Source: Rhizodiscina lignyota (taxonomy: Eukaryota). From it: a stretch of 64,000 nucleotides of DNA. Location of the stretch: assembly GCA_010015805.1 (NCBI GenBank), contig ML978125.1, positions 1,178,001 through 1,242,000 on the forward strand, given 5' to 3'. This document shows positions 25,078-28,971 of this stretch, piece after piece. Position 1 is the first letter of the stretch, and each line of letters opens with the position of its first letter. The position numbers and the translations under genes are program-made. The notes beneath the pieces are model-generated. The model was not told the DNA's origin, made no database searches, and worked only from the letters and a program-made list of their open reading frames with translations.

Positions 25078-28000
25078 ATGTTCAGAAGCGCCCTCCGCCA
25101 GTCAACCCGCGCGGTCGGGGCTTTCTCTGCTACTGGCAGAGTTGCTTCGGTAAGTTGATCACCACCGATTCACTTCGATTCACTTCAATTCGTGCGCAAC
25201 ACACCGCCAGTACCAGCTTCACTCACCGCCTTGAACTCCACTTCTTTGTTCTAAGGCTGTGTTGAGTGGCGCTGGCGCGAATTGAGACTCTCTTTGAAGC
25301 TTCGAGCTTTTGCAGCAGAGCACTGACATTTCCTCCCTTTCGCAGAGCCGAACCGCACCCGCCGCCTTCAACATCGCCTCAAAACAGATCAGAGGCTACG
25401 CCGAGGCGAAGGCCACTCCAACCGAAGTTTCTTCCATCCTCGAGCAGAGAATTCGTGGTGTTCAGGAAGAGGCAGGCCTTTCCGAGACCGGCCGTGTCCT
25501 GTCTGTCGGGTATGTCCTACGGTGTCAACTTCAAGATTTCAATCACCGAGACATAAGTTGGTTGAATGAAGCTAACGTGCGGTATATAGTGACGGCATCG
25601 CTCGTGTCCATGGCATGAACAATGTCCAGGCCGAGGAGCTGGTCGAGTAAGTTTTTCTCAGCAGCGGCAGGAACGCAGTTTACTGACACGACTGCAGGTT
25701 CGCGTCTGGTGTCAAGGGCATGTGCATGAACTTGGAAGCCGGCCAGGTCGGTGTCGTCCTCTTCGGTTCTGATCGTCTCGTCAAGGAGGGTGAGACTGTC
25801 AAGCGCACCGGCGAGATTGTAAGCACTCTCTACTCAGCGTCGCACATGCACTTACTGACCATCTGCAGGTCGATGTCCCTGTCGGCGAAGCACTCCTGGG
25901 CCGTGTCGTTGATGCGCTCGGCAATCCCATTGATGGCAAGGGCCCGATCAAGACGACCGAGAGGCGCCGTGCCCAGCTCAAGGCTCCTGGCATTCTCCCC
26001 CGCCGCTCAGTGAACCAGCCTGTTCAGACCGGCCTTAAGTCTGTTGATGCCATGGTCCCTATCGGCCGCGGCCAACGTGAGCTTATCATTGGCGACCGTC
26101 AAACTGGCAAGACTGCCGTCGCTCTTGACGCCATGCTGAACCAGAAGCGATGGAACAATGGCAACGACGAGAGCAAGAAACTCTACTGCATCTACGTCGC
26201 TATTGGCCAGAAGCGCTCCACCGTGGCTCAACTTGTCAAGACTCTTGAGGAGAACGATGCCATGAAGTACAGCGTCATCGTTGCTGCCACTGCTTCTGAA
26301 GCAGGTATTTCTTCTTTTTACTCCTGTATATCCCACTGACTAACCTCCACTAAAGCACCGCTGCAATATCTGGCACCGTTCACCGGTTGTTCTATGGGTT
26401 AGTTGATTTTTCATTGTCGCATTTTCCTTATTTCCAAACCGGTTCGATTCTCTTCATGTAACCGCACCTTCCTCGGACACGATGGGCACCTTCCCCGGAC
26501 ACCATGGACGACGCGTCTGCCTGGACTCGACTCTGGACGTCGCTTCCTCATGGACGATGGTCTGCCTGGACTGGATCATGGATAAATTGCTGGATTCCTT
26601 CGCTGTCAAATTCGGCATTGTCGAATTCCCTCTGCACTCAATCCTCGTCTACGACTTCGCTGCACCGCGCAATTCTCAACCAATTCGTCTCCGCTCACGC
26701 TCATTGTCACAATGTCTGCAATGTCTGCACTGTCCGCGCTTCGCTCAATTGTCGATGGTTACATGATTGAAATCATCAGTGCCGATTCACCCGACTGGTT
26801 TATCAATCGGAGCTTCAAAGTGGTTTTGTGCGCGGAGAGTCTCGACATCTGTGCGGCTGTGCCGCTTACTTTCGCTCGCGGCATGAGCGCGGTCCTTGAT
26901 TCTGACAGCCCGCCTTCTCTCGACTTCTTCATGTCTCTTCCCGACCCAACTCAGTACTATTGGGCCGTCTATGCTGCGGTCCTGGAGAAAGATGGTTGCG
27001 ACCCCAAACTCTATATTGGATCGGGGACCAATGCCGACGATGGTTGCACCACGCGCACCGCCATTTACGAGGACAAGACTCATCCAAAATTACCTCGATT
27101 CGTCCGTTTGGCATACGATCAAGGCTACGATCTTAGTCACATTGGCATGCTATGCTGGGCTCCGCTTCCTTCCGCGGCCATCGTTCCACGAGCAAGGCTT
27201 CGCTTCGTTGCTATCGAGGGCGTCTTCACATGCCTCTTCTACTCCGCGTTCCATAACATGATGGACAAGATCTGCATTGACTTCATGCCCTGGTCTCGCG
27301 ACGATGTTGTCTGGGCCCCGGCCAATAGCCACTTACCGTTCATGGAGGGCCCCATCGGCGATCTCAACTTGACTCCGGACGAATTACTCGCTATAGACAC
27401 TCAGAAAAAAATCGACTACATTGAGCGAAAGCGTCGTGAGTCCCGGGAGGCCTCTGAGCAGCTCAGGCAGAACACCATGGCTTGGCGTCAGGAAGTCGAG
27501 CGAGTTAAGCAACTTGAGAGGGCTCGGCGCGAAGAAGAAGCTGCGGAAGACGAGACCATGGACGAAGCTGCACCCGATCCTGAGCGTGAGGCGTATAATG
27601 CTAGGAAGCGCAAGGAAAAATCAGCTTGGACCGACAAGAACAGAGACAAAGTACATGTTCAGCACGAACGCACACGCGAGACAGCAAAAGCCAAACGGAG
27701 GTTTGTCTGCGACGACTGTGATTTAGCGCTTGCCAACTCCTCTGGACTCAAGAAACACCTGGCTTCGGACGCCCACGCACAGCAAGTCGCCATCAATCAG
27801 GGTACTGCTAAGCCTGGGCTGTCGTCGGGTGCAATAGCAGCAAAAACTCACGCCGCCAAAGCGAAAGCCAGTAAACGCCACTATTGCGGACCATGCGACC
27901 ATGCGTTCGCACAGGCCAAACATCTCGAGAAGCACAAGCTCAGCAAGAAGCACCTCCGGACAGTCGCATCCATCTCGTAGAATCATCTCGAGATCTCACT

Positions 28001-28971
28001 ACGACTTTCTTCAGTTGTTTCGTTTCTCAATTCTTCTCTCTTCAGTCTTGTCGACATGTCTCGAGCTCACAGTCTAATCTATTCAAACTTGCAGGGGAAT
28101 TCTTTAGGGACTCAGGGAAACAGTATAGCCCCCTACGTTCTTGGAGTTTCGGGCGACGCTAATATATAAATAGTGCTGTTATTGTCTACGACGATCTGTC
28201 CAAGCAAGCTGTAGCTTATCGACAGATGTCTCTGCTTCTCCGCCGTCCGCCAGGTCGTGAAGGTGCGTTACAAACCTAGACGGGTGCATTCGATTATCGG
28301 CTAACTCATTTATGTAAGCCTATCCGGGAGATGTGTTCTACCTCCACTCGCGCCTTCTCGAGCGTGCGGCCAAGATGAACGACAAGCACGGTGGCGGCTC
28401 TCTCACTGCTCTGCCAATCATCGAGACCCAGGGTGGTGATGTGTCTGCCTACATTCCCACAAACGTCATTTCCATCACCGACGGCCAGATCTTCTTGGAA
28501 GCCGAACTCTTCTACAAGGGTGTCCGTCCCGCCATCAACGTCGGTCTGTCCGTGTCCCGTGTCGGCTCCGCCGCCCAGCTCAAGGCCATGAAGCAAGTCG
28601 CCGGTTCCCTCAAGCTCTTCTTGGCCCAGTACCGTGAAGTGGCCGCCTTCGCCCAGTTCGGCTCCGATCTCGATGCCGCGACGAAGCAGACCCTGAACCG
28701 TGGTGAGAGGCTGACGGAGCTGCTGAAGCAGAAGCAGTATTCTCCCATGGCTGTCAACGAGATGGTGCCCCTTATCTTCGCCGGTGTCAACGGACATCTC
28801 GATAGCGTGCCCGTCAAGAGGATCCTTGAGTGGGAGGCGGATTTCTTGGCACACTTGAGGAGCAATGAGAGCGAGCTGCTTGCACAGATTGACCGCGAGG
28901 GTGCGCTCAGCAAGGAGCTGGAGGGCAAGCTGAAGGATGTCGTGCAGAGCTTCACCAAGAGCTTCTCGTAG
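25078..28971 (+). CDS. ATP1: Mitochondrial F1-ATPase alpha subunit (nuclear-encoded), 9 exons: 25078-25149, 25346-25509, 25590-25646, 25698-25818, 25869-26304, 26356-26397, 28095-28122, 28174-28262, 28319-28971
   Basis: Presequence MFRSALRQ..., Walker A GDRQTGKT. Splicing gives the continuous [80 protein letters not shown], and [13 protein letters not shown] follows. Confidence 0.97.
26398..28094 (+). mobile_element. 1697-nt spliceosomal intron 6 of ATP1 carrying an endonuclease ORF (putative homing intron)
   Basis: Donor G|GTTAGT, branch TCTAAT at 28073-28078, acceptor TTGCAG|GG. Removal restores ATG-GGG-GAA (M-G-E) in frame. Contains ORF 26712-27980. Confidence 0.85.
26712..27980 (+). CDS. 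GIY-YIG endonuclease-like protein with coiled-coil linker and two C2H2 (C-x2-C-x12-H-x5-H) zinc fingers, intron-encoded
   Basis: W84-AVY87...Y101-IGSGT...R115...Y119...E169...N205 follows the GIY-YIG motif order. Zinc fingers CDDC-x12-HLASDAH (27708-27776) and CGPC-x12-HKLSKKH (27885-27953). 422 codons uninterrupted. Confidence 0.82.
   Translation: MSAMSALSALRSIVDGYMIEIISADSPDWFINRSFKVVLCAESLDICAAVPLTFARGMSAVLDSDSPPSLDFFMSLPDPTQYYWAVYAAVLEKDGCDPKLYIGSGTNADDGCTTRTAIYEDKTHPKLPRFVRLAYDQGYDLSHIGMLCWAPLPSAAIVPRARLRFVAIEGVFTCLFYSAFHNMMDKICIDFMPWSRDDVVWAPANSHLPFMEGPIGDLNLTPDELLAIDTQKKIDYIERKRRESREASEQLRQNTMAWRQEVERVKQLERARREEEAAEDETMDEAAPDPEREAYNARKRKEKSAWTDKNRDKVHVQHERTRETAKAKRRFVCDDCDLALANSSGLKKHLASDAHAQQVAINQGTAKPGLSSGAIAAKTHAAKAKASKRHYCGPCDHAFAQAKHLEKHKLSKKHLRTVASIS

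Follow-up and report, generated by a model that had tools for sequence, protein, structure and literature searches.

An intron with a putative endonuclease gene in Rhizodiscina lignyota ATP1 lies in a cluster of short spliceosomal-type introns, in a stretch of altered codon usage

The nuclear gene ATP1 of Rhizodiscina lignyota, which encodes the alpha subunit of the mitochondrial F1 ATP synthase, occupies positions 25078..28971 of the 64,000-nt stretch of contig ML978125.1 that was analyzed here (the window; positions below are counted from its first letter, and all of its features discussed lie on the + strand). Removal of eight predicted GT..AG introns joins nine exons into an open frame of 1,662 nt encoding a 553-residue F1-alpha protein. 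The exon translations match Pfam PF00006 and PF00306, ATP1 exon fragments from relatives are 84–96% identical, and the residues that meet across every splice junction are contiguous in those relatives. Four of the introns are crowded between two uninterrupted exons, one of 436 nt (25869–26304) and one of 653 nt (28319–28971). Mini-intron 1 (26305–26355, 51 nt, GTATTT..AAG) interrupts Ala284 in phase 1 and is followed by a 42-nt exon (26356–26397, codons 284–298) whose codons are poorly adapted. A large spliceosomal-type intron of 1,697 nt (26398–28094, GTTAGT..CAG) then splits Gly298 in phase 1 and is separated by a 28-nt exon (28095–28122, codons 298–307) from mini-intron 2 (28123–28173, 51 nt, GTATAG..TAG, phase 2 in His307). 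An 89-nt exon (28174–28262, codons 307–337) leads to mini-intron 3 (28263–28318, 56 nt, GTGCGT..AAG, phase 1 in Ala337). An earlier reading of this DNA made without database searches (the sequence-only reading) had placed all of these boundaries exactly, including the AAG acceptors of two of the three short introns and the unusual GTATAG donor.

Each of the short introns contains a branch-site-like motif 11–14 nt from its 3′ end that can be compared with the fungal branch-site consensus: CTAAC at 26340–26344, CTAAT at 28159–28163 and GCTAAC at 28300–28305 (CTAAC at 28301–28305). Judged by their GT/AG ends, this motif, the restored frame and the conserved protein, all three are predicted to be U2-type introns. 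The other introns of the gene are 50, 51, 80 and 196 nt long, so that the three are 'mini' only relative to their large neighbor and are of normal fungal size; what is unusual about them is their density and their positions. Measured against the donor and acceptor consensus, the donors of all four central introns deviate (GTATTT, GTTAGT, GTATAG and GTGCGT) and two of the three short introns use AAG as acceptor, while the four 5′ introns have donors GTAAGT, GTATGT, GTAAGT and GTAAGC and acceptors CAG or TAG. Two short exons, of 57 and 72 nt, are found toward the 5′ end of ATP1 as well. When all eight introns are placed at random, any four of them fall within 159 nt with P=0.14; the value is P=0.008 when only the four 3′ introns are placed and the four 5′ introns are set aside. 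Clustering within the gene is thus weak evidence, and the weight of the argument rests on the comparison with relatives. The sequence itself is reproduced in Logan contigs of a separately assembled public run, probably from the source sample, which equal 25000–29100 with zero differences. This is the only public run that holds the ATP1 stretch, and it does so in a single contig identical to the window, with no joints and no variants.

The large intron contains an intact open reading frame (ORF) of 422 codons (26712–27980) for a putative homing endonuclease composed of a GIY-YIG domain, a long helix and two C2H2 zinc fingers. We identified 23 homologues of this protein with 26–50% identity, and a profile search matched at least 723 clusters (50% identity) to the family at E<=1e-30. 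Across 18 aligned endonuclease sequences Y87, G103 (in LYIGSGT), R115 and E169 are invariant and the second tyrosine is variable; we take the four invariant residues to be the counterparts of I-TevI residues. Both C2H2 fingers are kept in the alignment of homologues. The AlphaFold (AF2) model of the 422-residue protein has a predicted local distance difference test score (pLDDT) of 88. In a VIA-align search the I-TevI catalytic domain (1ln0_A) ranked top of 48,161 chains (Z 7.0, root-mean-square deviation 2.3 Å, 90/92 residues, model residues 83–208), and the remaining rows were coiled-coil matches to the one long helix. Foldseek, run with the complete model, produced nothing at E<=0.001, UvrC and Slx1 domains appearing only at E about 2, and sequence searches of Pfam and of solved structures with the endonuclease returned zinc fingers only, matching no GIY-YIG model and no GIY-YIG chain. 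By predicted fold and motifs, then, the product of the large-intron ORF is a GIY-YIG-type nuclease with putative cleavage activity, which bears out the view of the sequence-only reading that this intron carries an endonuclease. Read in phase 1, the donor of the large intron (26395–26403) gives G|GT TAG, and the unspliced ATP1 frame stops right at the exon border; the ATG of the endonuclease ORF lies ~315 nt downstream of this in-frame TAG.

Intron positions in the ATP1 genes of relatives were mapped from ORF fragments in a protein collection, where an exon is read through into the adjoining intron. The first residues foreign to ATP1 mark the exon end, and the phase follows from the GT or AG rule. 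Two queries were used, the last ATP1 exon (query 1; best 120 of 7,744 rows) and the 436-nt exon (query 2; best 120 of 6,893 rows). With query 2, 39 of the 120 rows continue uninterrupted over all four sites to a donor signature in Asp341 phase 2, 2 are partial and 79 break in codons 283–300; 65 of these 79 show GT-donor read-through, in at least 13 position/phase classes. Around the first site, introns lie after Ala283 (3 rows), in Ala284 phase 1, which is the site of mini-intron 1 (4 rows: P0159, P0184, P0240 and P0256), in Ala284 phase 2 (7) and after Ala284 (5). Further along they lie after residues 289 (2), 292 (1) and 293 (1), in Gly294 phase 1 (18, with intron lengths short or not known), after Gly294 (11), after Met297 (1), in Gly298 phase 1, which is the site of the large intron (3 rows with short introns: P0152, P0218 and P0262), in Trp300 phase 2 (2) and after Trp300 (1); the rest of the rows are ambiguous. 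Five 'G-stop' rows (P0189, P0245, P0252, P0209 and P0257) have either phase 1 with a GTTAG-like donor or phase 2 with a common donor, and fragments that start with methionine (e.g. 21 at Met325) are not assignable to a position. P0145 was set aside as an intron case, small frameshifts looking more likely. The opposite end of the same 436-nt exon served as a control and has a single dominant position before Val139, explicit in 50 of 120 rows, with 38 further rows beginning no more than 8 residues after it and two minor positions.

On the 3′ side, 22 of the 120 rows for the last exon begin at or before codon 283 and continue without a break to the stop, although some of these may be cDNA (complementary DNA) or spliced models. 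An acceptor signature for the Asp341 intron is found in another set of 22/120 rows, and 9 more are compatible with it. This phase 2 intron is therefore present in 39/120 fragments with query 2 and present or possible in 31/120 with query 1, among them those with the greatest similarity to the window. Its position, common among relatives and 14 nt downstream of mini-intron 3, is without an intron in the window (28330–28335). For mini-intron 2 there is no explicit counterpart among the 240 relatives' fragments. Mini-intron 3 has at most one in 120 rows, P0032, whose junctions are unresolved from the protein alone and whose read-through implies GC, not GT, at the mini-3-like site; this intron may be a decayed copy. 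On these counts the three short-intron positions are derived, not ancient or widely shared. As far as the derived positions go, this agrees with the sequence-only reading, which had taken the introns for recent gains and had named ancient positions shared by relatives as the observation that would speak against it. The position of mini-intron 1 is nevertheless not unique to this genome, as it recurs in the four relatives listed above.

Rows that are identical across 137 aa differ in intron position. A tree of the 120 fragments (137 conserved columns), in which ten indel-containing rows are probably misregistered, is poorly resolved, with 7/110 branches starred. Intron class changes 58 times on this tree, against 73.9 +/- 2.2 after shuffling and a minimum possible of 16, which indicates some inheritance, yet many changes. 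The measurable introns of the hot spot are about 50–131 nt long, and hence too short for an ORF, and five fragments (P0192, P0164, P0154, P0176 and P0218) combine two or more short introns in this stretch.

The endonuclease family resides in conserved housekeeping genes, namely in ATP1 (the window, the metagenomic contig L001 and the gene models P0109 and P0302), in the pyruvate carboxylase gene (L002) and in Hsp70 (P0386); a scan of metagenomes for endonuclease relatives returned only contigs L001–L004. In L001 the ATP1-borne ORF (L001:1-1160) is frameshifted near 560–610 and is a decaying copy. Its intron ends in AAG immediately 5′ of codons for Thr-Ser-Ile-Gly-Glu-Trp, that is in phase 1 of Gly294, 12 nt upstream of the large-intron site of the window; L001 has no intron at His307. 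P0109 (Grosmannia clavigera according to its source) and P0302 are gene models in which the endonuclease is fused to the 3′ half of ATP1, with junctions before ATP1 residues 296–301, and P0386 fuses it with Hsp70 after the residues RGTTVP. These three fusions point to further host genes and to further ATP1 insertion sites. P0109 was the only match to endonuclease proteins among the 240 ATP1 fragments. Thus Gly294 phase 1 is the site both of the frameshifted ORF of L001 and of introns in 18 of the 120 relatives, and Gly298 phase 1 is the site both of the window's intact ORF and of the P0218 intron of ~129 nt. Codons 283–300 are an intron hot spot at two or more of whose positions endonuclease-bearing introns are found, and intron turnover is fast around the insertion sites of this family. 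The concentration of introns that the sequence-only reading had noticed in one genome extends to relatives, with at least 13 positions within 18 codons.

The pyruvate carboxylase locus resembles the ATP1 locus in its layout. Its endonuclease is 29% identical to that of the window and lies in an intron with the same donor, GTTAGT, as at 26398. A 49-nt GTAAGT..CAG intron and a 13-nt exon precede this endonuclease intron (L002:137-198, 199-1904). The 5′ flank is visible in these two endonuclease loci, and both have a short intron 13–42 nt upstream of the endonuclease intron.

ATP1 has a strong codon bias, from which the exon sequence that surrounds the large intron departs. In codons 276–345 the G+C content of third codon positions (GC3) is 0.43 and the third-position adenine content (A3) is 0.21, compared with 0.72 and 0.07 elsewhere in the gene (Fisher P=5e-6), and the 70-codon segment with the lowest GC3 is formed by codons 272–341 (scan permutation P=0.0005). 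The run of poorly adapted codons extends from codon 282 to codons 340–342, with a geometric mean adaptiveness of 0.37 vs 0.73 elsewhere. In this respect the patch is similar to the ordinary genes of the window (GC3 0.43–0.65). Its left edge coincides with mini-intron 1, and its right edge with mini-intron 3 and the site of the absent Asp341 intron. We therefore delimit a block at 26298..28335, comprising ATP1 codons 282–342 (183 exon nt) and the four introns, whose exon parts carry a codon-usage history unlike that of the rest of ATP1.

The reading that we favor, with a probability of about 0.45, is that block 26298–28335 is a co-conversion tract produced by homing of the endonuclease intron and that the short introns are its passengers, probably homing introns that have lost their ORFs and shrunk. 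A GIY-YIG intron would have homed into ATP1 of this lineage from a diverged allele. The endonuclease would cut an intron-less allele of the gene, the break would be resected and its repair from the intron-bearing copy would import neighboring exon sequence together with the short introns of the donor. Those short introns would themselves be the ORF-less, shrunken remains of earlier homing introns at adjacent sites, and such an origin fits what is found at Gly294 and Gly298, where introns occur with an intact ORF, with a frameshifted one and with none. We infer cutting and homing by the large-intron endonuclease, the direction and source of the conversion and the relic origin of the short introns from this pattern. 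The sequence-only reading had proposed break repair, relics of earlier endonuclease introns and co-conversion as possible sources of the short introns. The codon patch favors the last of these and the sharing of sites by introns with and without an ORF favors the second, but the three mechanisms are not separated by the present data.

Several observations weigh against a converted tract with relic introns. Neither a donor allele nor an intron-less allele was seen, and the closest endonuclease relatives reach just 45–50% overall identity, or 59% in the best L001 segment. ORF-bearing introns, which the sequence-only reading had suggested looking for in other species, were not seen at the exact position of any of the three mini-introns. 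The absence of the Asp341 intron from the window is not special, as 89/120 last-exon fragments also lack it. The counts from relatives have limits of their own: with fragments clustered at 90% identity they do not equal numbers of species, rows that span the whole query exon are favored in the best-120 lists, and the length filter hid wholly intron-free forms. The codon patch, too, may not be unique to this genome. In nine relatives for which the same codons were rebuilt from out-of-frame read-through, GC3 is mixed, ranging from 0.36 to 0.77 (0.67–0.77 in four, 0.51–0.53 in three and 0.36–0.46 in two short stretches), and these relatives are not a clean control, all of them having introns in the same codons. 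That their GC3 reaches 0.77 indicates that the dip is not inherent in this part of the gene. An alternative source of low codon bias would be splicing constraints in very short exons, or mutagenic repair.

Mutagenic repair is also the basis of an explanation that we consider unlikely but worth weighing, in which the short introns were born in place. Repeated cutting by the endonuclease would have been followed by imprecise repair, by end joining that left filler DNA or by small duplications, with some of the insertions proving spliceable by chance. Intron positions that differ by 1–3 nt near Ala283/284 (four classes, 19/120) and at Gly294–Gly298 do resemble imprecise events at a site broken again and again, error-prone repair could erode codon bias, and a published proposal (PMC3020277) ties new introns to the repair of breaks. 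Against this, border repeats do not exceed 5 nt and the 64-kb window holds no source copy of the three introns, about sixty codons with altered synonymous sites are many for repair errors, and all three introns have well-placed branch sites, which would be rare in random filler. Enzymes of the I-TevI type cut away from their insertion site, and a short intron could accordingly act as a shield, splitting the recognition or cleavage site of a competing endonuclease or blocking re-cutting of the allele that carries it, and then travel with the element. The short introns 42 nt upstream of the large intron here and 13 nt upstream in pyruvate carboxylase are placed as such a role would have it, as are the short introns combined in the same five relatives' fragments. 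But the cleavage site is not known for this endonuclease family, and the 70 nt of exon around the insertion site of the window would stay intact in an allele with short introns only; we regard it as improbable that the short introns are kept for protection of this kind.

The three introns have normal size and signals, and another account would make them ordinary old introns of ATP1, inherited vertically and lost in many relatives, with the proximity of the endonuclease coincidental. The mini-intron 1 position shared with 4/120 relatives, the short exons at the 5′ end of the gene and the non-significant clustering within it (P=0.14) are all consistent with this. An ancestor with all of the positions, however, would need at least 13 introns in 54 nt, 39/120 relatives are uninterrupted, and the mini-intron 2 and 3 positions are essentially unshared. 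Identical exon proteins with different intron positions, and a codon patch that coincides with the intron cluster, are likewise hard to reconcile with vertical descent, which we consider most improbable. Introner-like elements are self-multiplying introns of some fungi, and copies of one might have landed here by chance. Such elements are described as inserting within 15 bp of the intron positions of other fungi, as parallel gains (PMC4457414), much as is seen here, but none of the three introns has a similar copy elsewhere in the 64-kb window and their size of 51–56 nt also argues against it; we give this account very little credence. We give equally slight credence to the idea that the short introns benefit the host or the element, by helping a spliceosome accustomed to short introns to recognize the 1.7-kb intron or by tuning its retention for expression of the ORF. 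Recurrence of the arrangement in a second host gene (pyruvate carboxylase) and the weak GTTAGT donor of both large introns would suit it; it is, however, purely speculative, and in the available sequence there is no such short-intron neighbor in L001 or on the 3′ side of L002.

If the tract with its passenger introns is taken one step further, the endonuclease family, with its home in nuclear spliceosomal introns, may be a generator of ordinary introns. Every time it invaded a conserved gene an intron would be left there, which after decay of its ORF would shrink to the fungal norm of ~50 nt, codons 283–341 of ATP1 would be a graveyard of such events in which some introns are kept as shields of cleavage sites, and the three mini-introns would be caught in mid-process. 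We offer this broader scheme tentatively and hold it to be possible at best. The pattern at the locus, non-ancestral introns beside an endonuclease intron where relatives have short introns at many different positions, suggests that a DNA-cutting selfish gene may drive both the gain and the turnover of ordinary introns.

Co-conversion and raised exon diversity beside mobile introns are known from organelles (PMC5378118). As in the transfers of plant cox1 introns and in yeast mitochondrial group I introns (PMC5378118, with the cox1 work as cited there), an intron-borne endonuclease is found here together with a patch of exon of altered history at its insertion site. Unlike those cases, the ATP1 host gene is nuclear, the introns are of the spliceosomal GT..AG type and the tract appears to bring additional short introns; no ribozyme evidence was found for the ATP1 introns, and none was sought. 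The protein shares with I-TevI and other GIY-YIG enzymes the catalytic fold (1ln0_A), the conserved Tyr, Gly, Arg and Glu and the modular arrangement of nuclease, linker and DNA-binding part. It differs from I-TevI in that its DNA-binding part consists of two C2H2 fingers, in residing in introns of nuclear genes (ATP1, pyruvate carboxylase and Hsp70) and in the lack of a sequence-level GIY-YIG match. In Dothideomycetes, introner-like elements are reported (PMC4457414) to have made parallel gains within a few nucleotides of the positions of other fungi, mimicking 'intron sliding'. The ATP1 introns are similarly lineage-specific and close to positions occupied in other fungi, but the 64-kb window holds no multi-copy element, and the scatter in ATP1 is centered on insertion sites of the endonuclease family. 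A homing cycle in which invasion is followed by decay of the ORF and then by loss has been set out for inteins and self-splicing introns (Goddard and Burt 1999, cited in PMC5378118). Its stages have parallels at the same or adjacent ATP1 sites in intact (window), frameshifted (L001) and ORF-less introns, the difference being that here an intron without its ORF would survive as an ordinary spliceosomal one of ~50 nt. In a search whose scope did not extend to subscription journals we found no paper reporting that nuclear protein-coding genes of fungi carry endonuclease genes in their spliceosomal introns. The case in a preprint (10.1101/787044) is another one, the insertion of a mitochondrial GIY-YIG element into a nuclear genome.

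The origin of new spliceosomal introns is a long-standing open question, for which introner transposons are a known source and break repair is a proposed one. Across Pezizomycotina, 54 nt of an essential nuclear gene contain at least 13 sites of short introns, and this stretch coincides with the insertion sites of an intron-borne endonuclease family. Should the association be causal, homing, so far associated with self-splicing introns and inteins, also shapes nuclear exon–intron structure, moves exon sequence between lineages and explains some of the near-identical 'slid' intron positions. Were the family indeed a generator of introns, homing would be one way in which fungi gain spliceosomal introns and come to have 'sliding' positions. 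The interest of the locus is high because intron gain thereby becomes testable.

Further observations concern the remaining metagenomic contigs. In the endonuclease intron of pyruvate carboxylase, a direct repeat of ~95 nt (L002:300-480) lies in the 5′ part, upstream of the ORF. L003 was rejected as a separate element, being the L002 element on a contig that begins inside the intron. L004 (L004:2950-3450) carries, between unrelated genes and with no recognizable host intron, a decayed endonuclease fragment that is 68% identical over residues 100–215.

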